Source of the DNA: an uncultured Alphaproteobacteria bacterium | GTDB taxonomy: Bacteria > Pseudomonadota > Alphaproteobacteria > Rs-D84 | Direction of reading: 5' to 3' | Assembly (NCBI GenBank): GCA_904502095.1 | Contig: CAJGDG010000002.1 | Span: 128 to 64,127 of the forward strand | Length of the DNA stretch: 64,000 nt | In this document: piece after piece, positions 165 through 56,855 of the stretch | Position numbering within the stretch: the stretch's first letter is position 1 | How the letters are laid out: each line of letters starts with the position of its first letter | The notes under the pieces: model-generated | What the model was told of the DNA's origin: nothing | Seen by the model: only the letters and a program-made list of their open reading frames with translations | The model's database searches: none | Translations under genes and position numbers: made by a program

Positions 165-192
165 AATGAATTATTCATTCACTAACCACTTG
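165..192. repeat. Left arm of an inverted repeat flanking the two-gene cassette (partner 3072-3102); a third, direct copy lies at 3550-3575
   Basis: The reverse complement of AATGAATTATTCATTCACTAACCACTTG matches CAAGTGGTTAGTG(ATTAGTG)AATGAATTATT at 3072-3102. Confidence 0.75.
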
Positions 193-282
193 CCCCGGCG
201 CAGCACAGCAAAAATCCTGCCACTACTAACCACTTGTACTGACCGCTAATATAATTTTTTCCTTTTATATTTTTTTTATTTA

Positions 283-2283: not shown

Positions 2284-2287
2284 AACA

Positions 2288-3102: not shown

Positions 3103-3234
3103 TTAAATATTAACATAATAAAAAAAATATTGCCGCTCTTTGTCATCCTGTGGCTTGACCACAGGACCCAGGTTATATTTCAATCCCTTTGTCATCCTGT
3201 GGCTTGACCACAGGACCCAGGTTATTTATGCAAA

Positions 3235-3397
3235 TTTGTGTTCGCGTTGCGAACATAGACCTGGGTTCCACGGTCAAGCCGTGGAATGACAGAGTTTTTT
3301 GTTTATTCACCTAGGTTCCGCAGGGCACCCGTGGAATGACAGAGTTTTTTGTTTATTCACCTAGGTTCCACAGGGCACCCGTGGAATGACAGAGTTT
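3235..3397. repeat. Right copy of the ~165-bp direct repeat
   Basis: Collinear with 1-164, with about 9 differences including one T indel. Confidence 0.9.
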
Positions 3398-3447
3398 TTA
3401 AGTTTTTTTACAAAAAAATTTTAAAACTATATATGTAAAGTTCTCTC

Positions 3448-3483
3448 TTTTGTCATCCTGTGGTCAAGCCACAGGATGACAAA
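3448..3483. repeat. Perfect palindrome unit
   Basis: TTTTGTCATCCTGTGG-TCAAGC-CACAGGATGACAAA; 13-bp or longer stem. Confidence 0.9.
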
Positions 3484-3576
3484 TTGATTGATATATGACC
3501 TGGGTATGAAAGTCAAGCCACAGGATGACAAAGAGCGGCAATATTTTTTATAATTATTTCACCACTAACCACTGGT

Positions 3577-4845: not shown

Positions 4846-4875
4846 TTTACTTAACTTTTATTTGTGCTTTATTTG

Positions 4876-4884
4876 TGATATAAT
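4876..4884 (+). promoter_or_regulatory. Extended -10 promoter element TGATATAAT
   Basis: TTTGTGATATAAT lies 30 nt upstream of the mucR TTG start. Confidence 0.5.
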
Positions 4885-4914
4885 TATCTTAGAAAAATGT
4901 AAAGGAAATGGCAA

Positions 4915-5271
4915 TTGGTAAATAAAAATTCTGATTTTACATTGGCGGTCGCAAATCTGGCGGCGGCGGCAATCGCTGCTAATCCGGCTTTGTCAATGCA
5001 GGCGGCGGTTAAAAACGCGCGTGAAATTTTGCGCGGTACATCTGTGACTGATGAACAAATCCAAGATTCTGTTCAGCCCGATAAAATACAATGTCTGGAA
5101 GATGGAACGTGGCATATAATGCTGCGCCGATATATAAAACGAAAATTTAATCTGACACCACAACAATATCGTGAAAAGTGGGGACTGCCAGATGATTATC
5201 CGTTTGTCGCACCTGCATATGCGCGTAAACGCTCTAAAATCGCAAAGAAAACCGGATTGGGAAGGAGATAA
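4915..5271 (+). CDS. mucR: Ros/MucR family transcriptional regulator with a degenerate zinc site
   Basis: C-terminal LTPQQYREKWGLPDDYPFVAPAYARKRSKIAKKTGLG is typical of the family. The finger region reads CLEDGTWHIMLRRYIKRKF instead of CLECG..LKRHL..HH. TTG start with AAGGA SD. Confidence 0.85.
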   Translation: MVNKNSDFTLAVANLAAAAIAANPALSMQAAVKNAREILRGTSVTDEQIQDSVQPDKIQCLEDGTWHIMLRRYIKRKFNLTPQQYREKWGLPDDYPFVAPAYARKRSKIAKKTGLGRR

Positions 5272-5273
5272 GC

Positions 5274-7283
5274 ATGGCAGATAAAACGTTTGTTCAAAAT
5301 CGTGGCGATAGTGTTCGGTTGTTTGCAGACAGAATAAAAAAAATGCGTAAAGCTACTGTTGGTCAACAGGTGCCTGATACCGTTCGGTGGAACGAAATTG
5401 CCAATGTGTCGCAAGATGAAAAAGGTGATAGAAAATTAGAAATCGATTTGGATAAGTTGGGCGTCTGGTTAAAAGAAAATGCGCAACAGGGAAAAAAGTG
5501 GACGCAGGTTTCGGCTTTGTGGGTGTCTGAATATTTGACGCGCGCAATAAATAAATTGATGGTGGATAATGGGCTGTTGCGCGGGGGTGAATTTGCTTTT
5601 GAAAAAGGCGCCAAGTTGTCCGAAAATATTAAAAACAAGGAAGGCAAAAAAATCGGAGAAACATTCGTTTCGCGCATTGTTAAAAATCGCCCTTGGGTGT
5701 TCAGCTATTTGATGTATTATTTGATTGCAACAACCTTTGTCGCGGGCGCTGTAAAAGAACCCGTGCCAGAACAAGACAAAGAAGAAGTAAAAAAAGAAAA
5801 TGTCGAAAAAGAAACCGACTCTGTGCCAGAAAAAGAACAAGATAAGTTCGAAAACTTTGTCCTGAATCCAAACGCGTCAGAAGAAGAGTGGCAAAAACAA
5901 ATTGATGCTGTGCAACCCTATGTTTTGTCTCATATATTTTCCACCGAAGGCTATATTAAAAAGGCTTATTTTGATGTGGGAGCTTCTTCGGGTACATTGA
6001 CTTTTGGTGCCGGGTTTACAATTGCAGACAGACAACATCGCAGTTTTGCATCCAAGATATTAGGGCGCAAATTGGGGAATGGTTCGGAAATCTCGATACA
6101 AGAAACAAAGATTTTGGTAGACGCGTGGATGCGTGAAAAGGTTTACCCGCCAATGAAAAAAGCGTTTAAAAAACCTTTGCCTGCCAGATTGTTTGTGGGA
6201 TTGGCTGTGGCTGCATATAATGCAGGCGAAAGCACATATACTCTGGCGGGAAATTCGGGCGTGCCAGTAGTAGAGGCTGTAAACGCAGGCAAAAGCATTC
6301 AGGAAATTGTCGATGTGTATGTGCGCGCCTATGGGAAACAACGTGGAACCCAATGGGGCGGTATGCCAAATAAATACGGTGTGTGTGCGCTGTATATGTT
6401 GGGGCATATTTCTGAAAAGGCTATTTTAGAATCTGTTGGTGAAGCGCCCTATACAATAGAGCCGTTTGTTGCAGCTGTACAGAAACAGGATAGTTCTTTT
6501 AACGAACGGAATATGGTCCAGGGGCGTTTGTTGGTGTATGATGGAAATGCAAAAGAATCAAAGCCAATCGGGGTTAAATATTATGATAATCTTGATGGTA
6601 TGTTGACTAAAACAAAGTTCCGCAAAACCAAAGGTACAGTGCAACTGCCTGTGCAGGAATATTTTAGCACCCAAGAAGTTAAAACTATGTTGGCTGGAAA
6701 TTTGTTCCAGGGCAAGACTGCGGATTTTATGCGAGAATTTAATAAAAATGTTGTCATAGAACAAAGCGAGTCTGAAAAGCTTAACGAAGAGGGTGAATTC
6801 TTGTTCGTAGAAGGCAAATATGCCGATGCAGAAAAGAAGTTTAAAGCCGCAATAAAAGCCGATAAAAATAACTATATTGTTTATAGCAACTTGTCTATTT
6901 TGTATTATCATATGGGACGTTTTGACGATGGGTTAAAGATTGTTCAGAGCTTGATAAATTCTGATAAAATGAAATCTGTGCCAGATGAAATAAAGTCTTA
7001 TACATATTATAATGCTGCGTTGTGCCGTGAAGGTTTGGGCGACAAGGCCAAGACAAAGAAGCAAAAGCAAGAACACTATAAATTATCAGAACAAAATTTA
7101 AAGCTGTCTGAAAAGTATAGCGGTACAGAACACGGCATGCTTAAACAAAGACTGAAAGAAAAAATGAATAATCTGTCTGCAAAAAAACAGGTTGTCGCTT
7201 TTAATGACGGAATTAAAAAAATGGAATCTAAAAAAATACTTCAAATTAACAACAGGGATTTTTCAAATGAAGGTATATGTTGA
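5274..7283 (+). CDS. Membrane-anchored lysozyme-like protein with C-terminal TPR repeats (669 aa)
   Basis: One TM helix (WVFSYLMYYLIATTFVAGAV). T4-lysozyme-like motif STEGYIKKAYFDVGASSGTLTFGAG with E-9-D spacing. TPR-like YSNLSILYYHMGRFDDGLKIV. ATG lies 2 nt after the mucR stop. Confidence 0.5.
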   Translation: MADKTFVQNRGDSVRLFADRIKKMRKATVGQQVPDTVRWNEIANVSQDEKGDRKLEIDLDKLGVWLKENAQQGKKWTQVSALWVSEYLTRAINKLMVDNGLLRGGEFAFEKGAKLSENIKNKEGKKIGETFVSRIVKNRPWVFSYLMYYLIATTFVAGAVKEPVPEQDKEEVKKENVEKETDSVPEKEQDKFENFVLNPNASEEEWQKQIDAVQPYVLSHIFSTEGYIKKAYFDVGASSGTLTFGAGFTIADRQHRSFASKILGRKLGNGSEISIQETKILVDAWMREKVYPPMKKAFKKPLPARLFVGLAVAAYNAGESTYTLAGNSGVPVVEAVNAGKSIQEIVDVYVRAYGKQRGTQWGGMPNKYGVCALYMLGHISEKAILESVGEAPYTIEPFVAAVQKQDSSFNERNMVQGRLLVYDGNAKESKPIGVKYYDNLDGMLTKTKFRKTKGTVQLPVQEYFSTQEVKTMLAGNLFQGKTADFMREFNKNVVIEQSESEKLNEEGEFLFVEGKYADAEKKFKAAIKADKNNYIVYSNLSILYYHMGRFDDGLKIVQSLINSDKMKSVPDEIKSYTYYNAALCREGLGDKAKTKKQKQEHYKLSEQNLKLSEKYSGTEHGMLKQRLKEKMNNLSAKKQVVAFNDGIKKMESKKILQINNRDFSNEGIC

Positions 7284-9261
7284 TATCCATGATAAACGGT
7301 GGAAGAAATATAAAATAGATTTTGAAAAAATCGCCAATACGGCGGTTTCTGGCGTATACAAGAATTCTGAAGTGTCGATTGTTTTGGTCGATGATGATGA
7401 GATTAAGTCGATAAATCGTCAATATCGTGATATCGATAAACCGACAAATGTTCTGTCTTTTGAATTGGGCGATGATGTTCTGTTGGGGGATATTTATATA
7501 TCTTTGGATACTGTCGTGCGTGAAGCCCGCAATATGAATATTTCTGTGCACGACCATGTGGCGCATATGGTGGTGCATGGGGTGCTGCATCTGTTGGGAT
7601 ATGACCATATTACTGATGAAGAGGCCGCTGTTATGGAATTAAAAGAAACCAAGATTTTGAAAAAGATGAAAATAAAAAATCCATACGAAGAAGATGTAAT
7701 TGCCTGTGTTGATGGAGATTGTTGCCCAGGCGCTAAAACAATTGCGTGGTTAAAAAATATAAAAGTTCGTGAAAACGGATTTTTGCAATATTTGCTGTAC
7801 GGCGTATTTGGTGCTGTTGCGTCATTGGGGTTTGCGCCTTTTTATCAATGGTGGTGGACGCTGATTGGGGTTGCTGGTGCGTATTGGTTGACGGTGCGAA
7901 ACAAAAAGATTGGCGGTTTGTTGCACAGCTTTTTACGCGTGTTTCCGTTTGGGGCAATGTATGGGTTGGCTATGTTTTGGTGGGTCTTGCATTCTATTTA
8001 TGTTGCGCCAGAACTGGCGGCACAATATGCAATATGGACAGTACCCGGTGTGTTAGGATTGATGTTGGCAAGCGGGGTTATTTTTTCGTGGCCATTTGTC
8101 GCAATCGCAAATAAAAAAGCATCGCCTGCGTCACGAATATGGTTGTTCGCATGTGTCTGGGTGTTGGTTTTATGGATGCGCGAATGGGTGTTTACAGGGT
8201 TTCCGTGGAATCCAATTGCAAATATAATGATGCCATTTCCGGCGATTGCTAATTCTATGTCTGTTTGGGGGGCGTTGGGATTAAGTTTTGTGCTTGTTGG
8301 ATTAATTGCTGCTGTTGTTGAATTGTTGCGTAATATAAAAAGTAAATCTGTGTGGTGTGTTTTGTTGTTGTTCGTTGGGTTTGCTGTATACGGCGGATTT
8401 GCTGGTGTACATAATATGGCGTTGTCGGATAATGGGGCAGGTACAGATGCGACAATGTTGCGTATTGTTCAGCCTGCATCATCGCAATCACAAAAAGCAA
8501 CCCATAACAGAGCCGAAGCTTTACAACGTGCACAGTTTAACTTGAAATCATTAATGGATTTGGCAAGTGTTCCGGGTGAATATGATATTGTCATTATGCC
8601 TGAAACAACATATCCGTTTGTTGTTATGGATACAGATATTATTGATATGGCGATTGATTTGAAAAAGCCAGTTGTTTTTGGGGCAAATACAGTTGGCGCA
8701 GGTGGTGTTTATAATTCTATGGTGATTTCCTCGGAAAACGGCCGTATAGAAAGAATTTATAGCAAGTCGCATTTGGTCCCATTTGGCGAATATCGTCCAT
8801 TTGGTATATTGCCTGCGCCCGTTAATTTAGCGCGTGGAAATGGACCTGATTTGATTGGTGTCGAAGGTTTTGTTTTTGCGCCAGCTGTTTGTTATGAAAT
8901 TATATTTTCTGATTCATTGTTGCCGGAAAATTCAGGCGAAGTTCACGCGGTTGTAAATATTACAAATGACAACTGGTTTGGCAATACCCCTGGGGTTTAT
9001 CAGCATTTAGATATGGTGCGCAGATATGCGATTGAATCTGGTTTGCCTGTTGTGCGCGCTAATTATTCTGGTATCAGTGCATTTGTTGCGTCCGATGGTG
9101 AAATAATATCGTCTTTGCCCGTTGGTCAAGCTGGTGTGTTGGACGGTTTTGTTTGGGGGGCACATAAAACAATTTATCGCGCAATTGGTTTAAATATGTG
9201 GATGATAATTATATTAATTGTGTCGATTTTTGGTGTGCGTGCCTTTTCAAAAAAAGAATAA
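7267..9261 (+). CDS. ybeY/lnt: Fusion of endoribonuclease YbeY (N-terminal ~140 aa) and apolipoprotein N-acyltransferase Lnt
   Basis: YbeY zinc motif HMVVHGVLHLLGYDH, then polytopic Lnt with catalytic E (MPETT), K (KSHLVPFGEY) and C (VCYEIIF) in one uninterrupted frame. Start at MKVYVD with AGGGA SD. Confidence 0.85.
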   Translation: MKVYVDIHDKRWKKYKIDFEKIANTAVSGVYKNSEVSIVLVDDDEIKSINRQYRDIDKPTNVLSFELGDDVLLGDIYISLDTVVREARNMNISVHDHVAHMVVHGVLHLLGYDHITDEEAAVMELKETKILKKMKIKNPYEEDVIACVDGDCCPGAKTIAWLKNIKVRENGFLQYLLYGVFGAVASLGFAPFYQWWWTLIGVAGAYWLTVRNKKIGGLLHSFLRVFPFGAMYGLAMFWWVLHSIYVAPELAAQYAIWTVPGVLGLMLASGVIFSWPFVAIANKKASPASRIWLFACVWVLVLWMREWVFTGFPWNPIANIMMPFPAIANSMSVWGALGLSFVLVGLIAAVVELLRNIKSKSVWCVLLLFVGFAVYGGFAGVHNMALSDNGAGTDATMLRIVQPASSQSQKATHNRAEALQRAQFNLKSLMDLASVPGEYDIVIMPETTYPFVVMDTDIIDMAIDLKKPVVFGANTVGAGGVYNSMVISSENGRIERIYSKSHLVPFGEYRPFGILPAPVNLARGNGPDLIGVEGFVFAPAVCYEIIFSDSLLPENSGEVHAVVNITNDNWFGNTPGVYQHLDMVRRYAIESGLPVVRANYSGISAFVASDGEIISSLPVGQAGVLDGFVWGAHKTIYRAIGLNMWMIIILIVSIFGVRAFSKKE

Positions 9262-9264
9262 ATT

Positions 9265-9471
9265 TTATTTTTTTAGGGCTTGTTGTAAAATCCAAACGCG
9301 TATTGTGGATGATAAATTGCGATTGCCAGGACACGTGGAATCTATTTCATTTATAATCGATGCAATCGAACGATTCTGCTGTATAGCAAGTTTTTTCAGT
9401 TCGTTTATAAATTCGGTTTCCAATGTAATACTGGTTTGGTGTCCCGATAAAGATACAGATATTTTTTTCAT
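9265..9471 (-). CDS. Ribbon-helix-helix protein (PF13467/RHH_4-like)
   Basis: ISVSLSGHQTSITLETEFINELKKLA...NLSSTIRVWIL matches the S.rL.GH.TS..LE..FW..L...A......NLSSA.R pattern. Confidence 0.7.
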   Translation of the reverse strand: MKKISVSLSGHQTSITLETEFINELKKLAIQQNRSIASIINEIDSTCPGNRNLSSTIRVWILQQALKK

Positions 9472-9472
9472 T

Positions 9473-9907
9473 TTAAATTCTTCCTGATACAAGACAATCT
9501 GATAACGCTTTGTATGGGTCGTCATATCGACGCATTGGTGTCAGATTTAAATTGTCCAACATATAAAATGTGCCGAATGCATCAAATGCAAACCAGAACA
9601 AATCGTTTCTGCCAAAGATTGTTTTTCCAAGCGTTTTTCCAAATGGTGCAATGTCGTCGTTTATTTTTAATATGCTGGGAATTGGATATGTGCTGTCCCG
9701 CATAATTTCATTTGGACCAAATATATACGATGTATCCAAATTAATCGCGCCAACATTTTTATAAAGTTCAAGTATTACATGGGGCAACATAGCATATCTG
9801 CGTTGTTGCAATGCGCCGTTCAGCAGGCTTATCTGATTTGATGCCGCCGGGGGGAATAATTGCGCCCCGCGTGATTTTGCAAAAGATAAAAATTCTTCAA
9901 GAGTCAT
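9473..9907 (-). CDS. SMI1/KNR4 (SUKH)-like protein
   Basis: MLPHVILELYKNVGAINLD resembles the LP.d...ly...nG core of SUKH domains; 144 aa; AGAGG SD. Assignment is by eye only. Confidence 0.4.
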   Translation of the reverse strand: MTLEEFLSFAKSRGAQLFPPAASNQISLLNGALQQRRYAMLPHVILELYKNVGAINLDTSYIFGPNEIMRDSTYPIPSILKINDDIAPFGKTLGKTIFGRNDLFWFAFDAFGTFYMLDNLNLTPMRRYDDPYKALSDCLVSGRI

Positions 9908-15795: not shown

Positions 15796-17529
15796 ATGTC
15801 TTATGATATTGAAATAATTCGTCATTCGTTGGCACACGTTATGGCGGCGGCTGTTAAAAAATTGCACCCTGATGTTAAATTCGCAGGGGGGCCAGCAATC
15901 GAAAATGGTTTCTATTATGACTTTGATACAGAATATCGCTTTTCCGAAGAAGATTTTGCAAAAATCGAAAAGGAAATGCGCGATTTAATTAAATCAAACG
16001 GTCGCTTTGAACAACGCAATGTTTCTGTTGATGAAGCCAAAGAAATATTCGCAAATCAGCCATACAAAATGGAATGGTTAAATGAATATGATGCCGCAGG
16101 CGAAGCGTTGTCTGTTTATGCTTTCCGTGATTTTGTTGATTTGTGTCGTGGTCCGCATGTGGAAAGTTCCAAAGACTTGCCAAGGGATGCGTTCAAAATC
16201 CGCAGTGTGGCCGGTGCATACTGGAAAGGAAATGCAAAAAATAAAATGCTGCAACGCATATATGTTGATGCGTTTGCCAGCAAAGAAGAATTGGACGCGT
16301 TCCTGAAAATGCAAGAAGAGGCTGCTGCGCGCGATAATAGAAAACTGGGGCGCGATATGGATTTGTTCCACTTTGAACCTGATTATGCGCCGGGGTCTGT
16401 TTTCTGGCATGACAAGGGATATAAAATTTATCGCAAATTGATAGAATACTTGCGTGCACGCCAGGAAAATGCTGGCTATATGGAAATTTGTACGCCTGCG
16501 GTTATGGACAGATGTTTATGGGAGCGCAGTGGTCATTGGGCAAAATATGGTGAGCATAATTATTCTGGGAAAACCCAAGATGGTAAAACATTTTGTATAA
16601 AGCCTATGTCTTGTCCGGGCGGTATGTTGGTGTTTGGTCATGGTATCAAGTCTTATAAAGATTTGCCTATGTATGTTGCGGAATTCGGTAAGGTTTATCG
16701 TTATGAAGCAGCGGGTGGTTTGTCCGGGCTGATGCGTGTGCGCGAGTTTACGCAGGATGATGCGCATATATTCTGTACAGAAGAACAGTTGGAATCAGAA
16801 GTTGTAAAGATTTTAAAGTTTATCAAAGATATTTATTCAAAGTTCGGCTTTGATAATATTTCAATGAAGTTGGCAACGCGCAAGGATTCTGAATTTCGTA
16901 TAGGTTCTGACGAAATTTGGGACAAGGCAGAAGGGGCATTGAAACATGCGCTGGATGCAAATGGAATTGAGTACGAGATTGCCGAAGGCGATGCAGCATT
17001 TTATGGCCCAAAGATTGATAATTATTTGAAAGATTCAATGGGGCGCGTATGGCAGTGTGGGACCGTGCAATTGGACATGAATTTGCCAGAACGATTCGAT
17101 TTGTCTTATGTTGGTGAAGATGGTGAAAAACATCGCCCAATTATGTTGCATCGTGCTTTGTTAGGGTCTATCGAACGCTTTATGGGCGTGCTGTTGGAAT
17201 CAACGGGGGGGCATTTGCCACTGTGGTTGTCGCCAGAACCGGTTGTTGTCACACCTATTTCTGAAAAGCATGCGGATTATGCAAACGAAGTTGTGGCCGC
17301 ACTACGTGGTGCCGGTGTAAATACACGTGCAGATTTGCGTGATGAAAAAGTGAACTATAAAATCCGTGAATTGTCGCTGGCAAAAACACCAATCGTTGCA
17401 GTTGTTGGCGAAAAAGAAATGGCTGATAAAACTGTGACATTGCGCAGACTGGGTGAACAAAAACAGGAAACAATTCCATTGGCAGAATTTGTTCAAATGA
17501 TGCAAGATGCAATTAAAATGCCATTGTAA
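15796..17529 (+). CDS. thrS: Threonyl-tRNA synthetase (577 aa, no N-terminal TGS domain)
   Basis: Starts in the editing domain (IIRHSLAHVMAAAV). Class II motifs FTQDDAHIF and HRPIMLHRALLGSIERF. Confidence 0.92.
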   Translation: MSYDIEIIRHSLAHVMAAAVKKLHPDVKFAGGPAIENGFYYDFDTEYRFSEEDFAKIEKEMRDLIKSNGRFEQRNVSVDEAKEIFANQPYKMEWLNEYDAAGEALSVYAFRDFVDLCRGPHVESSKDLPRDAFKIRSVAGAYWKGNAKNKMLQRIYVDAFASKEELDAFLKMQEEAAARDNRKLGRDMDLFHFEPDYAPGSVFWHDKGYKIYRKLIEYLRARQENAGYMEICTPAVMDRCLWERSGHWAKYGEHNYSGKTQDGKTFCIKPMSCPGGMLVFGHGIKSYKDLPMYVAEFGKVYRYEAAGGLSGLMRVREFTQDDAHIFCTEEQLESEVVKILKFIKDIYSKFGFDNISMKLATRKDSEFRIGSDEIWDKAEGALKHALDANGIEYEIAEGDAAFYGPKIDNYLKDSMGRVWQCGTVQLDMNLPERFDLSYVGEDGEKHRPIMLHRALLGSIERFMGVLLESTGGHLPLWLSPEPVVVTPISEKHADYANEVVAALRGAGVNTRADLRDEKVNYKIRELSLAKTPIVAVVGEKEMADKTVTLRRLGEQKQETIPLAEFVQMMQDAIKMPL

Positions 17530-17581
17530 TAAATCTGGGGCAGGGAACTGCCCCAAAAAATTAAATGAAAGGAAGGATAAT

Positions 17582-17725
17582 ATGAAGAAAGTTTTGATCT
17601 TGATTGCGCTGGTCTTGACACCGATGGTTGTTGCAGGTTGTGCAAAAAAATGCGAAGTAGAACCAATTGTAGAAGAAAATCATAAGTTGATTGTGCCTCC
17701 TAACTTTGGGCAGATGCCAAAATAA
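17582..17725 (+). CDS. Small lipoprotein (47 aa)
   Basis: MKKVLILIALVLTPMVVAGC lipobox; GGAAGGA SD. Confidence 0.55.
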   Translation: MKKVLILIALVLTPMVVAGCAKKCEVEPIVEENHKLIVPPNFGQMPK

Positions 17726-17763
17726 TTTTTTGATTATATCTGTTTGGCGGTTGGGCTTTTTTA

Positions 17764-17772
17764 TGATATAAT
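17764..17772 (+). promoter_or_regulatory. Extended -10 element TGATATAAT
   Basis: TTTTATGATATAAT lies 31 nt upstream of the ATG at 17804. Confidence 0.5.
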
Positions 17773-17803
17773 ACATGTATAATTTTACAGGGGGGATTAC
17801 GTT

Positions 17804-18586
17804 ATGAACGAAGATAACAGCTTGGATTTACTTGACTTAGATGATGCAGAATCTATGGATTCTTTGCCAGAGGCACCGGCGTTGGCTGCGCCAAGACCTA
17901 AAAAACCATGGCTGTTGTTGACGGTCGGTTTGGCGGTTATTGTGTTGGCGTCGTATGTGATTATTCGCGCAATTGGAACAGAATCTTCTTCGTCTGTGGA
18001 AATTGATTTAGATGCGCCTGTTATGATGGTAGATGAACAGGGAAAGCCGATCGATATGAATGTTATGCCGCCTGTAAAACCGGCTGCGCCTGTACAGCAA
18101 CCTGTTGTTCAGCCTGTTCAACAGACTGCGCCGGCTGCACAACCAAAACTGGCTGTGCAATCCGAGCCTGTGGTACAATCGGCGCCTGTACGCGTAATAG
18201 AAGACAGAAAAGAAGTTAAGTTTGAACCAGCCAATGTTGCAGAACCCACTCCTGTTGCAAAACCTGCGGCAAAGCCTGTGTCTAAACCTGTGGTAAAGAC
18301 GCAACCAAAACCAGTCGCTAAAAAGAAAGCTGTTACATCTGTATTCAGTTGGTATGTTCAATTTGGTTCATATAGCACGCGTGCATTGGCAGAAAGTGCG
18401 CAACGCAAGTTGGCGTCTTCTCACGCCGGTTTGTTTAGTGGTAAACAATTTGTTATTTTGGCGGCGCAGTTGAAAAATGGTACAACTACATACAGATTGC
18501 GTGTTGGATTTAATTCGTCAGGTGATGCAAACGGATTTTGCCGTAATGCCAAAGCTGATGGATTGGATTGTTATGTGACAAAATAA
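17804..18586 (+). CDS. SPOR domain protein with a TM anchor and Pro/Val/Gln-rich linker
   Basis: TM WLLLTVGLAVIVLASYVIIRAI; PVxQ and KPV repeats; C-terminal SPOR-like WYVQFGSYSTRALAESAQRKL...YRLRVGF. Confidence 0.8.
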   Translation: MNEDNSLDLLDLDDAESMDSLPEAPALAAPRPKKPWLLLTVGLAVIVLASYVIIRAIGTESSSSVEIDLDAPVMMVDEQGKPIDMNVMPPVKPAAPVQQPVVQPVQQTAPAAQPKLAVQSEPVVQSAPVRVIEDRKEVKFEPANVAEPTPVAKPAAKPVSKPVVKTQPKPVAKKKAVTSVFSWYVQFGSYSTRALAESAQRKLASSHAGLFSGKQFVILAAQLKNGTTTYRLRVGFNSSGDANGFCRNAKADGLDCYVTK

Positions 18587-44578: not shown

Positions 44579-45121
44579 TTAATTGTTTTGTGTCGCCAAT
44601 TGTTTTGCCTGGGCAAAAAATGTTAATGATTGGCCCAATAAACCGTCTGTAAATGTTGATGCCAACAATCCGTCGGGTTCAGTCGAATTCAAATGATGTA
44701 AAAATGTGTCGCCGCGTCGCATATAATTGTCAATATTTCGTGCGACTTCGGTGTCCAGTTTTATGCTGCGACGAAGTTTTTCCAACACGAATGGGTTTTT
44801 TGCGTATTCGTCCATAATGCCGCCCAATGCACGCCACAGTGGATGCTCGGGGGTGTTGCGGGGCATAATGTCGATGGCGGCCATAACAGGAATCAGGCTT
44901 TGCAGCAGATCTTGGTAAATCATTTCTGCGTTTTCTGCGATGGCGTTGGTTGCGTATTTGTTTTTCAGTACAGACTGAATTTTTGCAATTAAATTATATT
45001 GGTGTTCCAGTGTTTTTGTTATGCTGGCAATGCGCGCGTTAATTTTGAAAATATATACGCCAACGGCGATAGTTGATAGTAAAAATATCCCAAAAATCAA
45101 ATATATAATAAAGTTTTGCAT
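44579..45121 (-). CDS. Single-pass membrane protein, unknown function (180 aa)
   Basis: N-terminal TM FIIYLIFGIFLLSTIAVGVYIF; helical remainder; GGGGGC SD. Confidence 0.55.
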   Translation of the reverse strand: MQNFIIYLIFGIFLLSTIAVGVYIFKINARIASITKTLEHQYNLIAKIQSVLKNKYATNAIAENAEMIYQDLLQSLIPVMAAIDIMPRNTPEHPLWRALGGIMDEYAKNPFVLEKLRRSIKLDTEVARNIDNYMRRGDTFLHHLNSTEPDGLLASTFTDGLLGQSLTFFAQAKQLATQNN

Positions 45122-45258
45122 AATCTTTTGCCCCCAGGTTTATATTGTGTTCGAGAGTTAGTATAGCATCTTTTTGCGATTCGTGCGATTTTATCTTGTG
45201 AAAATAATTTTTTCGTTGAAATAAGTGTTTTTTATGTCTTGCACAGATTCGGTCAAAT

Positions 45259-45267
45259 TGTTATAAT
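45259..45267 (+). promoter_or_regulatory. Extended -10 element TGTTATAAT
   Basis: AAATTGTTATAAT lies 44 nt upstream of the ATG at 45312. Confidence 0.45.
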
Positions 45268-45311
45268 AAGAACTAAATAAGATAAATAATATAGGGAAAG
45301 GAAGTCTTGAT

Positions 45312-46307
45312 ATGTTCCGTAAAGTATTGATTGGTGCAATGTTTGCAACTGCTGCTGGGTATTGTTTTGCTGCTGAAACGATGCCACAGGTCGTCACATC
45401 AGAAGTTTTTTATGAACAAGAGAAAACTGTTGATGAAAATCAGTGGGAATTGGTGGATACAACAACGGTCGATGTTGTTGAGACAGTGGAAGAATATACA
45501 GAAATACCTGCGTGGCCAATCGCAGGGAGTGAGGCAGACGTCGAAGTTTCTTGCGAGTCTGGTGTTTGTTCCAAGAAAAAACAGAACGATAATATTCGTA
45601 TCGTGTCCAAGATAGGTTCGGATTTGGTCGTTGAGAACAATATTAACTTGGGTGCGCGCGGTGATTATGGCGACTGGTCTGGTGGTGCAAATATGTTGCA
45701 CGGTACCCAGATTCCGGTTGGCTTTGACGATGAATGTAATTCGGGTGCCGAAATGGGGGTGTTGCATCGTGAAGCGCTGGAAGATGATGGCGGTAATGTT
45801 TTAACTGTTTCGCGCAGCGGCAGAAAAAATTGTGGCAAGTATGCAGACAACTATGATGCGTTTGCTGTCAAAATGAATATGAAGGCGGAACCAAAAGGTG
45901 CGGATAAGGCAAATGGTTTGTCTGGTGTTAAAACAGAAATAACAGAAATGTCGACAGAAACGGAAACTATCACGGAAACAATCACAAAAACAGAAACGGA
46001 AATTGTGGTCGATGCGTCTGCGGATGCCGAAGCGCCAGCTGTTTTGACAGACCAAGTTCGTTCATGGGTTGTTGCAAATGGTCAGACATTGCGTGAAGTG
46101 TTGCAAAATTGGTGCAATAAAGAAGGCTGGGATTTGGTTTGGACAACGCCACGCGAATATCCGATTGAGGCCAGCGCGGTATTCAAGGGTCGCTTTGTTG
46201 ATGTGGCGTCTGCGCTGGTTCGTAATTTTGGGCGCGCAACACCTGTGCCATATGCAAAGTTTTATAAAGGGAATCGGGTGTTGGTGATTTCAACAAACGA
46301 AGAATAA
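45312..46307 (+). CDS. Secreted protein with a C-terminal TcpQ/PilL-type domain
   Basis: Signal peptide and Thr/Glu-rich linker (TETETITETITKTETE). The C-terminus WVVANGQTLREVLQNWCNKEGWDLVWTTPREYPIEASAVFKGRFVDVASALV matches the TcpQ (PF10671) pattern W.v..G.tLr..L..W....GW.l.W. Confidence 0.6.
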   Translation: MFRKVLIGAMFATAAGYCFAAETMPQVVTSEVFYEQEKTVDENQWELVDTTTVDVVETVEEYTEIPAWPIAGSEADVEVSCESGVCSKKKQNDNIRIVSKIGSDLVVENNINLGARGDYGDWSGGANMLHGTQIPVGFDDECNSGAEMGVLHREALEDDGGNVLTVSRSGRKNCGKYADNYDAFAVKMNMKAEPKGADKANGLSGVKTEITEMSTETETITETITKTETEIVVDASADAEAPAVLTDQVRSWVVANGQTLREVLQNWCNKEGWDLVWTTPREYPIEASAVFKGRFVDVASALVRNFGRATPVPYAKFYKGNRVLVISTNEE

Positions 46308-46340
46308 TTTAAATATCAAGATGTCGTAGGAGAATTAGAT

Positions 46341-47969
46341 ATGATAAAGCCAGTAAAAATCTTTGTTGTGTGCGGTTTGGTTTTGGGGGCACTGGCAGGG
46401 TGTACAACCAAAGAATCCGCAAAAGTTGCGGCGTCTGTTGATCAGGATTTTGTTAATGCGTATGATGCCTTTGAAATGGCAAAAAATCCACGTGCCAAAG
46501 TTGCCAGTGGTGATACCGTATCTATGTCCGAAGGTGTTTGGTTGGGAAACAAGTCTGTTGTGTTGGAACACAAAAATAATTTGCCGTCACATTTTGAAAC
46601 AGATACTGGTGTGACAATATTATTAAATGAACCTGTGTCGTTACAGGTTTTGGCAAATGATATTTATTCTATTACAGGCATCCCTGTTAAAATTGATGGA
46701 CAGGTTTCTGGTGATAAATTAAAGAAGTTGGTTAATGTTGCCTATACAGGTAAATTATCTGGTTTATTGTCTCAGGTTGCGACAGATTTAGATTTGTTGT
46801 GGTATTATGATAAAAATTCAATTGTTTTTTATGAAACAGAAACCAAGACATTTACATTGTATGCCCTGGGGACCGAGGTTGCATATCAAACATCTGTTTC
46901 AACAGACGATGCAAATGAAGTGTCTTTGGAATCGACTTTGAAAGAATGGGATGAAGTTGAAAACGCTATATCTTCTATTATAGGTAAAAGTGAAAATGCA
47001 GATTTTACGGTATCGCGCAGTTTGGGAACCATTACTGTGACTGCATCGCCATCTGTACTAAGTCGCGTTGGTGAATATATCGACCGTCAGAACAAGCGTT
47101 TGTCACAACTGATAACAATTGATGTAAAAGTGTTGCAGGTGACTATTTCAAATGATTCTGCATTTGGGTTGAATTTGGCGGCGGCTATTAATTCTACATC
47201 TGGATTAAATATTGTTGCGAATCCAAAAAATAATTTGGCATCGACTGAAGCCAGCGCCATGAACATTGCTGTGTTGTCGAATGCTGTCTCGGCATTAACG
47301 GGTGCGACACATTTGGAAAATGGTCAGTTGGTCGAAGGCGCATATACCCAGGATAAAATTATGAACGGTTCTTTGTCAGGTGCTGCGGGCAGTAATGCCT
47401 TAATCGAAGCCTTGGCAAAGCAGGGCAAGGTATCGTTGGTGACAAATGTTGGTGTGACAACACGTTCAAACCGCGTTGCGCCGGTCAGCAATACTCGCAC
47501 CACAGGATATATCAAGCGTTTTGAATCCAGAAACTTTACAACTGTTGAATCCAGTACTGTTGACCAAGATGATTTGGAAACAGGGTTTACAATGCAGTTG
47601 TTGCCAAATGTTTTAGAAAACGGCAAGATTTTGTTGTTGTTCCGTATGTCGGTTCGTGAATTGTTGCGTATGTCGACTCAAACAATTGGCGAAGTGACAT
47701 TACAGTTGCCAGAGGTTGAAGAACGCAGCTTTATGCAAGAAGTTATCATGGAATCAGGTCAAATGTTGGTTGTATCAGGTTTTGAAAAACAAACAAACGA
47801 AGATACACGCTATGGTTTGGGTGATCCTGACTTTATGGCATTGTCTGGCTCGCGCGAGACATCGGCGACTCGTGAAGTTTTGGTTGTTATCTTGACACCG
47901 CAAGTATTGGTCAGCCCAATGGATGCAGAAAGAACGATACAGCAGCATTGGGGTGCACCACTAAACTAA
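46341..47969 (+). CDS. pilN: Lipoprotein secretin, type IVb pilus PilN (R64) family-like
   Basis: Lipobox LGALAGC. C-terminal secretin domain MQLLPNVLENGKILLLFRMSV...GQMLVVSGFEKQ...REVLVVILTPQVL. Confidence 0.7.
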   Translation: MIKPVKIFVVCGLVLGALAGCTTKESAKVAASVDQDFVNAYDAFEMAKNPRAKVASGDTVSMSEGVWLGNKSVVLEHKNNLPSHFETDTGVTILLNEPVSLQVLANDIYSITGIPVKIDGQVSGDKLKKLVNVAYTGKLSGLLSQVATDLDLLWYYDKNSIVFYETETKTFTLYALGTEVAYQTSVSTDDANEVSLESTLKEWDEVENAISSIIGKSENADFTVSRSLGTITVTASPSVLSRVGEYIDRQNKRLSQLITIDVKVLQVTISNDSAFGLNLAAAINSTSGLNIVANPKNNLASTEASAMNIAVLSNAVSALTGATHLENGQLVEGAYTQDKIMNGSLSGAAGSNALIEALAKQGKVSLVTNVGVTTRSNRVAPVSNTRTTGYIKRFESRNFTTVESSTVDQDDLETGFTMQLLPNVLENGKILLLFRMSVRELLRMSTQTIGEVTLQLPEVEERSFMQEVIMESGQMLVVSGFEKQTNEDTRYGLGDPDFMALSGSRETSATREVLVVILTPQVLVSPMDAERTIQQHWGAPLN

Positions 47970-47986
47970 AAATAAATTATAATAAC

Positions 47987-48057
47987 TTATCTAAAAGTAA
48001 ATCGGGAATCTCATGTAGCGTTATGTACACTACGATTCCCGATTTCCTTTTATCTAA
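47987..48057. mobile_element. 55-bp MITE-like element (47995-48049) with 16-bp terminal inverted repeats, flanked by a perfect 8-bp direct repeat TTATCTAA
   Basis: TTATCTAA|AAGTAAATCGGGAATC...23 nt...GATTCCCGATTTCCTT|TTATCTAA; 15/16 TIR match. It could also serve as the secretin terminator. Confidence 0.5.
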
Positions 48058-48177
48058 ATTATTCTAATTTATTTTCCGCTAATCACGGGGTATGGCGGTG
48101 CGTGTTTTTTGCCAAAATATTTTAGTTTATTTTAATGTTAATTAAACGCGCTTTGTTTAACATGTTGATTATACTTC

Positions 48178-48193
48178 TTTTTTTTTTTTTTTT
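48178..48193. repeat. Homopolymeric T16 tract
   Basis: Sixteen consecutive T residues, 34 nt upstream of the extended -10 at 48227; the longest homopolymer seen in the window. Confidence 0.95.
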
Positions 48194-48226
48194 GCGCAGA
48201 AAAAACTTCGTTTTATGCGGGTTTTA

Positions 48227-48235
48227 TGATATAAT
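48227..48235 (+). promoter_or_regulatory. Extended -10 element TGATATAAT
   Basis: TTTTATGATATAAT lies 30 nt upstream of the ATG at 48266. Confidence 0.5.
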
Positions 48236-48265
48236 TCACAGTAAATAGAAAAGGGAAGGGATATT

Positions 48266-48679
48266 ATGCAATTAAAGTTTTTATTTGTTGCTGTGTTAAT
48301 GGCAGTGGCGTCATTTGATGTTTCGGCGGCGACTATTGGTTCGGCTGGTGCGGGGAACGCTGGAAGCAATACGGTTTATGCAAATGGTTTGGTCGGTTCG
48401 GGTGGTATAAATGCGGACGACAGTGCAAAATTGCAGATGATTTCGACCTTGGAAAACGATATTACAATATTGGATGCTGAAATAAGAAAGTGTGAAAAGT
48501 CCAAAAAGGGTTGGATTGCGGCGACTGTTATTGGGTCGGCGGGTGTTGTGGCGACGGGCGTTGCCGCCGGTGTCCAGGGCGCAAAATTGTCCAAGAAAAA
48601 GGGCGAGCTGGAAGACATAAATGCTGACATTGCAAATAAACAAAAAGAATTGAATTCTATTAATGGCGGGGGAAATTAA
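48266..48679 (+). CDS. Secreted/membrane coiled-coil protein with a Cys-Lys-Ser-Lys motif followed by a glycine-zipper segment (137 aa)
   Basis: Signal peptide; GNAGS motif; ILDAEIRKCEKSKKGWIAATVIGSAGVVATGVAAGVQGAKL; AAGGGAAGGG SD. Confidence 0.7.
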   Translation: MQLKFLFVAVLMAVASFDVSAATIGSAGAGNAGSNTVYANGLVGSGGINADDSAKLQMISTLENDITILDAEIRKCEKSKKGWIAATVIGSAGVVATGVAAGVQGAKLSKKKGELEDINADIANKQKELNSINGGGN

Positions 48680-48680
48680 G

Positions 48681-50438
48681 ATGAAACGCGGTATTTTATT
48701 TTGTATGTGCACACTGTTTCCAATGGTTGCGGGTGCGGATTATTTGGACGATAAAATTGCGACATTGACCCAGCAAAAGTTGGATAAGATTGCAGAATTG
48801 GAAAAATGCCAAAAGTCGACCAAGGGATTAAAGATTGCGGGTATTACAACCCTGGGTGTCAGTACGATTGGTATTGCCGCCAATATTGGTGAAGCGGTTG
48901 CACTGAATAAAACCGAGGACAAGATAGAAACTGCACAAAAGACAAGTTCTGATTTGGATAGCCAAATCGCAGCAGCAAGAGAAGAAGCGAGAAAGAAAGC
49001 AGAGGAAGAGGCGAAAAAGAAAGCAGAGGAAGAGAAGGAAGAGAAGAAAGCGGAGGAAGAGGTTAAGAGTCCTGAAATAGAATCGGACACAAATATTCCA
49101 GATTGCCCAGCAACGGGTAGTTGTTCTATAAACGATTGTAAGTCAGATGCCGTTCTTAGGGGGTTGGGGGCTGCAAGTGCAGATTGTTATGACGGTGCGT
49201 GTATAGCGACCGAGTGTTCTGACCCCAGTGGAAATCATACGAAAAAACAATGTAAAAAACCAGACGGGACTATTTTCTCTTATTATTCAACGTGTATGGG
49301 CAAGGGTCAGAGTAAAAATACCGATAAGTGTGAGCTGACAGGGCATATTAATTCAAATCCTGGTGTTTGTGCTTGTGCTGAATATGCTTTTCTGATTCCG
49401 GGCTCTAACGAGTGTAAATGTCAAGGTGGAACAGACTGGAAAGATGACAAGAAAGAATGTGAATGGTTGAATATAACTGTGGAGGCTGAAGGTGTGTCGA
49501 GGCCTGATGGCCCAACCGCAGCAGAAGTTGCCGCTGGCTTGCCAAGGGGGCAAATGACGGTAGATACAACAGAATTGGGTATAAATCTTCCAGAAACAGA
49601 ATTGCAAAAATCTTTGAATGAAGTAAACGCGCAAAGCGACGCCCAAAAAGCCGATTTGCAAAGAAGATTGCAGGCGGGGCAATTGACCCAAGATCAATAT
49701 AATTCAGCAGTTGATTTGTTGGACGCGAATACCGCATCGCAACGAGCTGAAATGACCAAGAAAGCACAGAAAAAATTGCAGGAAGAACGACAGAAATCTT
49801 GGGAAAAGATAGCAAAAGAAGTGAATGAAATTGATGATTCAATAAAGAAAGCAGAAGCCAAGGCGGCAGAAGAAGCAAAGAAAAAACTGTGTGAGGATAC
49901 AAATGGAAGATGGCGTCCGGGCAGAAAAGATTGCGAATGCGACGATATCTATTCTTTTGTTGATGGCCAGGGTTGTGTTCTGGACCAGGCAAAGAAACAG
50001 GCACAGCTTGAAGAGCTGACGAAAAAACAGGAAAAGTTGACCGAGTCAAAGGTCGATAAAAAGACAGAAAGACAAACAGATAAATTGCTGAAAGATTTGC
50101 AGAAGCAAAAAGAAGAGGATGCTGAAAAAGCAAAGCAGGCTTTGTGTGAAAAGGCGGGACGCTGGAATCCTACTCTTAAACGCTGCAATTGTAATGATGA
50201 TTTGCACAAATGGGATGATGCGATGGGTTGTGTCGTAGACGAAGCAAAAATGCGTAAAGAAGCCGAAAGGCAAGCTGAAAAACAAAAAAAGGCAGATGAA
50301 AAAGCAAAAAAACAAGCTGAAGAAGATGCTTATGATAAAAGAGTGTCTGATGCGATGGCTGAATATGGTTTTAGTAAATCCAAAGCAAAGCAGTATATTG
50401 AAAACCAAGATAAAATAAATGCTTTGAATAGTCTTTAA
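48681..50438 (+). CDS. Large secreted coiled-coil / Cys-module protein, paralogous at its N-terminus to 48266 (585 aa)
   Basis: KIAELEKCQKSTKGLKIAGITTLGVSTIGIAANIGEAVAL; Glu/Lys-rich helices; a central Cys-rich region; two 4-Cys modules. The ATG lies 1 nt after the upstream stop. Confidence 0.7.
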   Translation: MKRGILFCMCTLFPMVAGADYLDDKIATLTQQKLDKIAELEKCQKSTKGLKIAGITTLGVSTIGIAANIGEAVALNKTEDKIETAQKTSSDLDSQIAAAREEARKKAEEEAKKKAEEEKEEKKAEEEVKSPEIESDTNIPDCPATGSCSINDCKSDAVLRGLGAASADCYDGACIATECSDPSGNHTKKQCKKPDGTIFSYYSTCMGKGQSKNTDKCELTGHINSNPGVCACAEYAFLIPGSNECKCQGGTDWKDDKKECEWLNITVEAEGVSRPDGPTAAEVAAGLPRGQMTVDTTELGINLPETELQKSLNEVNAQSDAQKADLQRRLQAGQLTQDQYNSAVDLLDANTASQRAEMTKKAQKKLQEERQKSWEKIAKEVNEIDDSIKKAEAKAAEEAKKKLCEDTNGRWRPGRKDCECDDIYSFVDGQGCVLDQAKKQAQLEELTKKQEKLTESKVDKKTERQTDKLLKDLQKQKEEDAEKAKQALCEKAGRWNPTLKRCNCNDDLHKWDDAMGCVVDEAKMRKEAERQAEKQKKADEKAKKQAEEDAYDKRVSDAMAEYGFSKSKAKQYIENQDKINALNSL

Positions 50439-50466
50439 AAAAACCGCCATTTGGCGGTTTTTTTAT
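50437..50466. terminator. Bidirectional rho-independent terminator
   Basis: AAAAAAACCGCCA-TT-TGGCGGTTTTTTT. Confidence 0.88.
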
Positions 50467-50876
50467 TTTGTTTTTTGTGCTGCTGCATTAATGATTTGCA
50501 TTCGTTTTTCAAGCTCGCGCTGAAAGTTTCGTTTTGATGCGTGGTTCAAGCGGTTAAGGAAATTTTCGTCGTCATTAAATACATAATAAGAACTTGGGTA
50601 TAACTGCACAACTGGTTCGTTTGTTTCTTTGTCCAGGTATTCAATAATTGTTGATGCAATTTTTTCGCCCATTTGGCTTGCTTTGTATGTGACAGCCATG
50701 TCGTATGCACATGGATTTGGAAATGGTTTAGATTTTATCCAGCCGGTGGCAGATGTTTGCTTTACACCGTTTTCGCATAATAATGGCAGCGGCGTTTCTT
50801 TGCATTCCGAGAATACATTGAAATTGCACATAACATTAAAGTTAATTAAATATGTGTTCTTCTTTTTTTTGCTCAT
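50463..50876 (-). CDS. Hypothetical protein (137 aa)
   Basis: ORF from MSKKKKNTYLINF with no motif recognised. Confidence 0.5.
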   Translation of the reverse strand: MSKKKKNTYLINFNVMCNFNVFSECKETPLPLLCENGVKQTSATGWIKSKPFPNPCAYDMAVTYKASQMGEKIASTIIEYLDKETNEPVVQLYPSSYYVFNDDENFLNRLNHASKRNFQRELEKRMQIINAAAQKTK

Positions 50877-56390: not shown

Positions 56391-56855
56391 ATGTATCAAG
56401 AGTCAGGTCGTTCTATGATTGAAATGTTGGGTGTGTTAGCGATTATGGGCGTTATAACAGTTGGAGCAATCGGTATGATTTCAACTGCAATGCGTACTCA
56501 AAAATTGACAAGCGTTAATGACGAAGTTGTTCAGATGGTGACAATGGTTCGCAATATTCATGCTGAATACGATGATTTTTCAAATATGAATACAGAAACT
56601 ATCTTTTCTGTTATTGGTATGGCGGATAAAAATCCGTATGGTGGGAATTATATATTGTCTGTGGACTCTGCAAATCCCCGTCAGTTTGTTGTAAAAATAG
56701 ATGGTTTGACACAGTCTGAATGTAATGCGTTAACAACCAAGGCCTGGTCTGATTCTGTTGGGTACAAGATGTCTGATGGAAAATTGGGTGGCGCAACGGG
56801 TTCTTGTGCAGATGAAAACGGCAAGAATTTTGTTCAAATAACTTTTGGTGAATAG
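56391..56855 (+). CDS. Type IV pilin-like protein with an atypical +1 residue
   Basis: Class III signal MYQESG|RSMIEMLGVLAIMGVITV with Glu at +5 and a C-terminal Cys pair (SECNALTT...GSCADENG). Confidence 0.7.
   Translation: MYQESGRSMIEMLGVLAIMGVITVGAIGMISTAMRTQKLTSVNDEVVQMVTMVRNIHAEYDDFSNMNTETIFSVIGMADKNPYGGNYILSVDSANPRQFVVKIDGLTQSECNALTTKAWSDSVGYKMSDGKLGGATGSCADENGKNFVQITFGE

Follow-up and report, generated by a model that had tools for sequence, protein, structure and literature searches.

A lipoprotein secretin and its TcpQ-domain partner on the chromosome of Candidatus Enterousia: probable outer-membrane module of a type IVb pilus with scattered genes

Introduction

The 64,000-nucleotide stretch of Candidatus Enterousia DNA treated here (the window) encodes a protein with a TcpQ domain and, next to it on the same strand, a lipoprotein secretin. 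The two very probably form the outer-membrane module of a type IVb pilus that is chromosomally encoded. The pilus would belong to the kind known from R64 and from integrative and conjugative elements (ICEs) as well as from the Bfp and Tcp systems, and its motor genes would be located elsewhere. The pilus would be a known machine with scattered genes, which is a common outcome of genome rearrangement. It would also be a plasmid/ICE-style type IVb pilus that a lineage with reduced genomes inherits vertically as a core machine; the Rs-D84 version looks complete, and plasmids, ICEs and pathogenicity islands are where this kind usually occurs.

The host, Candidatus Enterousia of the order Rs-D84, is an uncultured gut alphaproteobacterium with a genome of <1 Mb. 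Rs-D84/Enterousia is a prevalent uncultured gut group with tiny genomes, and its members are thought to live off other cells. Enterousia genomes are ~0.75-1.0 Mb in size and show no respiration and no biosynthesis of amino acids or nucleotides, and dependence on other cells is predicted (PMC12306168). The published genome survey reports type IV pili for another lineage only, and not for Rs-D84/Enterousia (PMC12306168); a literature search on pili in Rs-D84/Enterousia found no report. The remainder of the window is housekeeping chromosome, with sufBC, gatCAB, parE, dnaJ, uvrC, dnaN, rpsT, plsY and dprA, and in addition tRNA synthetase genes, ftsI, recJ, tatC, lolA and lnt.

Relatives of the secretin at 85-100% identity number in the hundreds and come from metagenome-assembled genomes (MAGs) of animal and human gut. 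When each GTDB species, represented by one genome, is scanned with an alignment of four secretins, the best 80 loci are all from Enterousia; many of these are titled 'Candidatus Enterousia sp.', and one is a circular chromosome of 958,618 bp. Co-occurrence of genes was assessed in 83 Enterousia loci, each with 10-kb flanks, and 177 loci were fetched in all.

The secretin and the TcpQ-domain protein

The secretin is laid out as a lipobox with Cys21, a long N-terminal helix, a conserved stretch for partner binding, N0 and N3 domains and the secretin barrel. The Secretin family PF00263 matches residues 357-523 (E 2.3e-13, 50.5 bits compared with a cut-off of 27.5), and among NCBIfam models TIGR02520 (PilN family type IVB secretin) is by far the best, at E 1e-70. 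The cysteine of the lipobox L-A-G-C21 (...GALAGC21TTKE) does not vary in any of the alignments (20, 8 and 39 relatives), and lipidation is predicted. Since the lipobox has an acylatable Cys, a separate pilotin would be unneeded.

The TcpQ-domain protein has a signal-peptide-like N-terminus, a fast-evolving acidic part (residues 1-244) and a conserved TcpQ (N0-like) domain (residues 245-331). The hydrophobic N-terminus predicts export to the periplasm. PF10671 matches residues 250-328 (E 2.5e-18, 66.4 bits, cut-off 27), and no NCBIfam PilL model matched. A gap of 33 nt separates the gene from that of the secretin on the same strand. It is found directly 5′ of the secretin gene in 83/83 Enterousia loci, and also in more distant loci (L084, L086, L088 and L178-L180). 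With a promoter-like site before the first gene and a stable hairpin after the second, the two genes look like a bicistronic unit.

A preliminary description of this region had outlined six open reading frames (ORFs), and these are found at or near the coordinates given there. Its assignment of a TcpQ domain to the end of the 45312-46307 product holds, as does that of the 46341-47969 product to LAGC lipoprotein secretins of the PilN kind, TIGR02520 being the best model but matched below its equivalog cut-off. The window likewise contains no gene for a pilus ATPase or platform, as had been said, nor one for PilO or PilP. Pfam scans of its other large ORFs gave housekeeping families only, with no T2SSE, T2SSF, PilO or PilP, and tblastn of the window with the PilO, PilP, ATPase and platform proteins of Enterousia gave nothing at E <= 1.

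Secretin identity among the 83 species is 85-96%. The median identities are 96% for the secretin barrel (C-domain), 95% for ParE, 93% for the TcpQ domain, 89% for the whole secretin, 86% for DnaJ, 82% for UvrC and 78% for SufB, compared with 63% for the N-terminal part of the TcpQ protein. The secretin and the TcpQ domain rank among the best-conserved proteins of the region. A pair under such strong constraint is no relic, and the idea that it is a decaying remnant left by the break-up of an operon is scarcely credible, even though the two genes are separated from their partner genes in a lineage undergoing genome reduction. Both frames are intact in 83/83 species, the secretin and the TcpQ domain are conserved above SufB, DnaJ and UvrC, and a 0.9-Mb genome with ~90% coding density keeps few useless genes (PMC12306168). 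Being so conserved, the pair marks the pilus as a candidate key to how these bacteria live and as a possible handle for enrichment or imaging.

In Enterousia species the TcpQ protein can be anywhere between 294 and 579 aa long (compared were L020, L025, L027, L030 and L039), because the acidic Thr/Glu-rich N-terminal part grows and shrinks. Despite these changes at the N-terminus, the C-terminal domain is 86-97% identical.

Likeness to the BfpB-BfpG complex

Sequence search matches the secretin to BfpB (9u5s_A, E 3e-43). In a profile built from 39 sequences, secretin positions 33-507 align with BfpB residues 14-529 (E 3.7e-102). The next profile match after BfpB is a T2SS (type II secretion system) GspD, at E 1.6e-12 and in the C-terminal barrel part only. 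An AlphaFold2 (AF2) model of the secretin from the 39-sequence alignment has a mean predicted local distance difference test (pLDDT) value of 67, with 76-89 for N0, N3 and the barrel. The top Foldseek match of this model is also 9u5s_A (E 1.1e-30, template modelling (TM) scores 0.54/0.61), and BfpB leads the runner-up by 13 orders of magnitude. In addition, residues 245-329 of the TcpQ protein match BfpG, chain R of PDB 9u5s (E 2.5e-14).

BfpB and BfpG, which belong to the bundle-forming pilus of EPEC, form a 17:17 complex (PMC12531336). The lipidated N-terminal 'LG' domain of BfpB links N0 to the outer membrane, and the C-terminal stretch of LG holds BfpG around the N3 ring (PMC12531336). The window secretin has an equivalent of the BfpG-binding region at residues ~49-82, of which residues 49-77 are of low confidence in the monomer model. 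W67, G69 and S72 within this part are invariant, and L81 and P82, which come just after, are invariant or nearly so. Such a low-confidence yet conserved stretch resembles an interface that may fold on binding.

The window pair and BfpB-BfpG thus have the same constitution, i.e. a lipoprotein secretin without N1/N2 and, encoded alongside, a small periplasmic partner that is N0-like and of the TcpQ family, and the end-to-end profile alignment of the window secretin takes in the BfpG-binding region. There are also differences. The window secretin is only ~23% identical to BfpB, and Enterousia secretins carry an insertion of ~30 residues. The partner in the window has 331 aa with a variable acidic extension of 244 aa, whereas the solved chain has 114 aa. 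The bfp genes form one plasmid operon; the Enterousia pair is on the chromosome beside oriC, apart from the remaining genes of the machine. Binding of the BfpB-BfpG type and a 1:1 stoichiometry may be proposed for the window pair by homology only.

The insertion of Enterousia secretins (…SALTGATHLENGQLVEGAYTQDKIMNGSLSG…) is located before the secretin domain, at residues about 318-350. It is absent from relatives with 35-44% identity, and model confidence is very low there.

Break-up of an ancestral pilus operon

In a library-wide search, a gap sets the Enterousia secretins apart from full-length relatives at greater distance. These relatives include loci with an intact arrangement (L084, secretin 40% identical; L086, 65%; L180, 65%). 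These have six adjacent genes on one strand in the order TcpQ-secretin-PAP_PilO-PilP (a 227-273-aa protein)-T2SSE ATPase-T2SSF platform, which is the pilL-N-O-P-Q-R order of R64/ICE. Other loci are split. L088 (secretin 79% identical), L178 (74%), L179 (71%) and essentially all of the 83 Enterousia loci have sufB, the membrane protein gene g180, the TcpQ gene and the secretin gene, with no adjoining pilus gene. In L088, L178 and L179, rpsT, plsY, a gene resembling p275, dprA and dnaA come after the secretin gene. From the intact and split contexts among relatives it is therefore concluded that the ancestral operon was broken once, on the branch to the Enterousia clade. These relatives date the split to one branch, and they also show that 'orphan' calls based on a single window can mislead, in that the secretin is an orphan only at the scale of the 64-kb window.

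The missing motor genes are found in relatives. A profile of two ATPases retrieves hundreds of ATPases with 71-76% identity from gut MAGs of 'Alphaproteobacteria/Rickettsiales', and the best 120 are mostly from a low-GC sister genus. The ATPase loci of this genus (GC 0.34) read DUF374-lpxK-lpxC-small lipoprotein-PilO-PilP-ATPase-platform-(189 aa)-gyrB and are without a secretin. One locus, L054, which emerged from a translated comparison with the 83 Enterousia loci, is from a 'Candidatus Enterousia sp.' species representative and has a secretin 87% identical to that of the window, contains both the pair and the beginning of this operon. Its secretin gene is followed by rpsT, plsY, p275, dprA, dnaA, a 189-aa ORF, DUF374, lpxK, lpxC, a gene for a 124-aa lipoprotein and pilO, all on one contig, with 9.2 kb between the secretin and the start of pilO.

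A metagenome scan seeded with L054 PilO gave 80 further loci. Locus L096 (GC 0.40), an Enterousia contig, has 85% identity to L054 in lpxK, 84% in lpxC, 93% in the lipoprotein and 81% in PilO. Its PilO (PF06864, 31.5 bits) and PilP (TIGR03021, 36.1 bits) exceed the family cut-offs, and its T2SSE ATPase of 548 aa, which is 70% identical to that of L086, is accompanied by a T2SSF platform protein of 367 aa. In ~45 longer loci across the order, no secretin was found within 10 kb of pilO-pilP-ATPase-platform. A search for a secretin and an ATPase from one MAG by way of consecutive GenBank protein accessions turned up no matching pair. As the pilO-P-Q-R motor operon is conserved across the order, it is very probably present in the window's own genome.

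Several observations weigh against the pair being part of a complete type IVb pilus. The secretin scores 238.7 bits on TIGR02520, which is under the equivalog cut-off of 287.65, and the PF07655 N-terminal domain of classic PilN proteins is missing from the precomputed Pfam annotation of the secretins. The motor operon is seen in relatives only, the window being nearly the entire contig of 64,269 bp. The linkage of the pair and pilO on the same contig comes from one species (L054), in a locus that ends inside pilO, and the contig of a near-identical strain (L176) has no pilO after dnaA, unlike L054. No prepilin peptidase was found in the fetched loci, either by a crude scan for GxGD[..]K with multiple transmembrane segments (~180 loci) or in Pfam tables covering part of the loci. 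Finally, the function of the pilus, be it adhesion, DNA uptake or secretion, is wholly inferred.

Split-operon lineages always have a gene for a small lipoprotein (102-124 aa) between lpxC and pilO (e.g. L054:18834-19208, L096:3238-3591 and L089:7689-7997), which is absent from intact-operon relatives. The protein has no family match and may be a PilM-like or pilotin-like addition to the pilus. In the sister genus, a VirB4/TrbE-type ATPase gene (L092:1439-3853) is located a few kb 5′ of the pilO operon, so that some members of the order may also have a type IV secretion system.

The pilin and the proposed machine

The window also encodes a type IVb-like prepilin, the probable fibre subunit. 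Its sequence reads MYQESG/RSMIE, with predicted cleavage at Gly6, followed by a hydrophobic N-terminal helix, and it has two C-terminal Cys. Among solved structures it comes closest to TcpA, a type IVb pilin (8uhf_A, E 2.9e-5, residues 8-125). The Pfam matches, N_methyl, TcpA and Bundlin, are weak and all under cut-off. The only other class III signal in the window is that of a TatA-like ORF. The pilin gene adjoins uvrC in 14 loci, where identities are 72-81%.

By homology to BfpB-BfpG, the secretin would receive its lipid at Cys21 and reach the outer membrane by Lol-dependent sorting, lnt and lolA being present in the window. It would oligomerise into a gated channel, and the TcpQ protein may dock 1:1 around the N3 ring, on the stretch between the N-terminal helix and N0. 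The TcpA-like pilin would make up the fibre, which would pass through the secretin. Building of the fibre would be carried out by PilO, PilP, the GspE-family ATPase and the GspF-family platform as inner-membrane and cytoplasmic module, encoded outside the window in an operon of the form lpxK-lpxC-lipoprotein-pilO-pilP-ATPase-platform. The break of the single ancestral operon, in the Enterousia ancestor, may be due to rearrangements near oriC/dnaA. To judge from lifestyle only, the pilus would most likely serve attachment to partner cells or self-aggregation.

The proposed machine can be compared with two well-known systems. With the R64 thin pilus and ICE-type clusters (pilL-pilN-pilO-pilP-pilQ-pilR) it shares the gene order seen in the intact-operon relatives, the PilN family as best NCBIfam model of the secretin, and PilO and PilP proteins that pass the family cut-offs, as in L096. 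It differs from R64/ICE in that the secretin, unlike PilN, falls below the equivalog cut-off and is without PF07655. In addition, the Rs-D84 system is vertically inherited and has no conjugation context, in an order with genomes mostly <1 Mb; the Enterousia machine is split over at least three loci (pair, pilin and motor operon), and no pilS/T/U/V cluster or shufflon is seen. With the toxin-coregulated pilus (TCP) of Vibrio cholerae (TcpC-TcpQ, TcpA) it has in common the TcpQ domain, a pilin nearest to TcpA and a lipoprotein secretin. Unlike in TCP, the leader of the window pilin is very short (6 residues) and has Arg at position +1, regulators of the tcp kind and a secreted factor resembling TcpF are lacking, and the Enterousia genes are dispersed.

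Neighbouring genes and the slot 3′ of the secretin

Features of the region are listed in Table 1. The promoter candidate is 45 nt 5′ of the TcpQ-protein start, and such sites are no commoner in the region than expected from shuffles. The hairpin 3′ of the secretin stop has a predicted RNA folding energy of -26.1 kcal/mol (z = -7.2), and 0 of 200 shuffles were equally stable.

Table 1. Positions in the window of the pair, the pilin and neighbouring features
Feature	Position	Strand	Basis or remark
g180, divergent 180-aa single-pass membrane protein	44579..45121	-	one N-terminal hydrophobic helix
Sigma-70-like promoter candidate (TGCACA-16-TATAAT, upstream TG)	45240..45267	+	consensus scan
PilL/TcpQ/BfpG-type secretin partner	45312..46307	+	331 aa; PF10671; match to BfpG chain
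Lipoprotein type IVb pilus secretin (PilN/BfpB/TcpC kind)	46341..47969	+	542 aa; PF00263, TIGR02520
Likely terminator, strong hairpin with U-rich tail	47999..48052	+	30 nt 3′ of secretin stop
cc137 (137 aa) and cc591 (591/585 aa), strain-specific ORFans	48266..50438	+	fill slot 3′ of secretin
Bidirectional terminator	50436-50465		at the convergent gene
g155, convergent gene	50463..50876 (or 50930)	-	no family match; parE companion
Type IVb-like prepilin, probable fibre subunit	56391..56855	+	class III signal, Glu at +5

The divergent protein g180 is, as first described, a single-pass membrane protein. It has no family match in Pfam, NCBIfam or PHROGs, and its AF2 single-sequence model is unusable (pLDDT 46). 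The gene is present in 81-82 of the 83 Enterousia loci and in L088, L178 and L179. The intact-operon loci L084-L087 have no homologue, and thus g180 is a new neighbour of the pair and not an ancestral pilus gene.

The slot between the secretin and the convergent gene (window 47970-50462) is, across the 83 Enterousia species (L004-L083), either empty or filled with unrelated genes. In close relatives, with a secretin 92% identical, it is empty and the secretin is directly followed by the convergent gene and parE. Elsewhere it contains Ala/Thr-rich repeats ending in a phage-tail-fibre-like motif 'NPHAVTKTQVGLGNVQNV', Gly-rich proteins, a 936-aa protein with 81 Cys or ORFans with signal peptides. 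The secretin and parE are between 262 bp and >10 kb apart, and this is a place where many MAG contigs end. A Pfam hunt for hidden pilus genes near the secretin in the 83 loci found ORFans and one aldolase only.

In the window the slot is occupied by cc137 (48266-48679) and cc591 (48663/48681-50438), the ORFs of which overlap or abut and have signal-peptide-like N-termini, in agreement with the preliminary description. No Pfam or PHROG family was found for either. None of the 83 Enterousia loci holds a homologue (0/83), and the 177 loci give a single 52-residue match, in another genus (L153). The two proteins had been taken as part of a set of related glycine-zipper/Cys proteins. This stands in so far as both contain one 33-residue 'KC.KS.KG + Gly-rich hydrophobic' module (42% identity, pairwise E 0.002). 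A family link between cc137 and the glycine-zipper protein p275 does not stand, the pairwise BLAST value being E 0.2. A relationship of cc137 to the alpha-xenorhabdolysin XaxA was also rejected, since NF033928 gives 22.1 bits compared with a cut-off of 125, over a coiled-coil/hydrophobic stretch only.

The p275 gene (63024-63851) encodes a 275-aa protein with no family assignment. It is a core gene, always found between plsY and dprA, and is fast-evolving (median identity 51%). A second family consists of Cys-rich proteins of 370-603 aa that have a similar C-terminal Gly-rich hydrophobic segment. These are encoded 3′ of dnaA in most species and have no family assignment either. Examples of the p275-like and Cys-rich families are at L067:12853-13734 and 16506-18008.

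Homologues of the convergent gene g155 are found in 32-36 loci; they are fast-evolving, with a median identity of 45%. The gene is always beside parE and may be up to 7-10 kb away from the secretin. Taken together, the genes 3′ of the secretin have no relation to the pilus machine and are carried as cargo in a hypervariable slot. The secretin and its flanking proteins form no conserved unit, and g180 alone is a steady neighbour.

These findings bear on the proposal that the secretin has been kept without its pilus machinery and recruited, with the TcpQ protein and the flanking proteins (44579, 48266, 48681 and 50463), as a minimal, self-contained export or anchoring module. The absence of any motor gene from the window speaks for such a module, as does the fact that in different species the slot 3′ of the secretin repeatedly encodes proteins with signal peptides. 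However, it is now a most improbable reading. The preliminary description, which made this proposal, had named as evidence against it a pilus operon elsewhere that lacks its own secretin, and a pilO-pilP-ATPase-platform operon without a secretin is what is found in genomes of the Enterousia clade, on the same contig as the pair in L054. With such a motor operon in congeners, the pair is not a stand-alone export device. Secretins are not known to have an energy source of their own. The neighbours also fail to co-occur with the secretin in the 83 loci: cc137 and cc591 have no homologue there, the slot is empty at 92% secretin identity, g155 is tied to parE, and g180 is missing from intact-operon relatives. 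In addition, the strong terminator lies between the secretin and the slot genes. The other possibility raised at that time, that the secretin is one part of a dispersed type IVb or competence pilus, is supported, and the pilin at 56391 is indeed TcpA-like.

A further question is whether the type IVb machine secretes proteins in addition, with the slot proteins (here 48266-50438) as strain-specific secreted or pilus-tip cargo. TCP secretes TcpF and CFA/III secretes CofJ, and type IVb pili export proteins of their own operons. The slot of many species does hold a changing set of predicted exported proteins, but these are not homologous to TcpF or CofJ, many species have an empty slot, and a terminator separates the slot from the secretin. 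Moreover, similar ORFans are found at other rearrangement junctions without neighbouring pilus genes (e.g. behind dnaA and at the left end of the window), and a recombination hotspot therefore fits better than a functional link. Secreted cargo is a very improbable role for these proteins. A broader version, by analogy with TcpF and CofJ, would make the pilus the central organelle of partner contact in a lineage that depends obligately on its partners, and the slot an exported or displayed strain-specific 'cassette' that is swapped at an oriC-proximal hotspot. There is little likelihood that this is so; if true, it would represent a diversity-generating system for host or partner specificity.

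DNA uptake as main function

The same type IVb machine could have DNA uptake as its main job, i.e. act as a competence pilus that supplies nucleotides and DNA to an auxotrophic cell. In most Enterousia species dprA follows the secretin at a distance of 2-4 genes and shares its strand, the block reading secretin-slot-(rpsT)-plsY-p275-dprA-dnaA, and the lineage is without nucleotide biosynthesis (PMC12306168). On the other hand, dprA is merely within a conserved oriC-proximal block, and no comEA, comEC or pilT was seen in the fetched loci. DprA is widespread among non-competent bacteria. The known competence pili belong to the type IVa or Com kinds, and not to type IVb pili of the PilN/BfpB type. 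A competence pilus is thus unlikely, if less so than the secretion readings above, and DNA uptake is a weaker alternative to attachment or aggregation as the use of the type IVb pilus.

Other observations on the window

The ybeY and lnt genes at 7192-9261 are read as one frame of 689 aa, with the YbeY domain at residues 38-159 and the Lnt domains at 207-650. This is either a fusion or an overlap read as a single ORF, and L176 likewise has one called gene.

The L176 contig, from the near-identical strain, has 99.3-99.97% nucleotide identity to the window. Positions 1-12716 of L176 join window 61136-64000 to window 3177-9478, such that dnaN-rpsT-plsY-p275-dprA continue via dnaA and a 257-aa ORFan into rarA, mucR, the gene of a tetratricopeptide repeat (TPR) protein and ybeY-lnt. 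If this join is taken literally, the 64-kb window closes as a circle of ~67 kb, which is impossible for this chromosome. Thus either the strains differ by a rearrangement or one of the assemblies is mis-joined.

A 50-nt repeat that contains a hairpin (…GGTTCCACGG…CCGTGGAATGACAGAGTTTTTT) is arrayed at window 1-214 and 3235-3447 (also 3119-3552), and a 97-nt inverted repeat is present at 3119-3215 / 3456-3552. The arrays of the 50-nt repeat flank a gene cassette, p657-p267 (310-3031). L176 has another ORFan in place of this cassette, and with the cassette swapped in this way, the flanking repeats may mark a site of cassette exchange.

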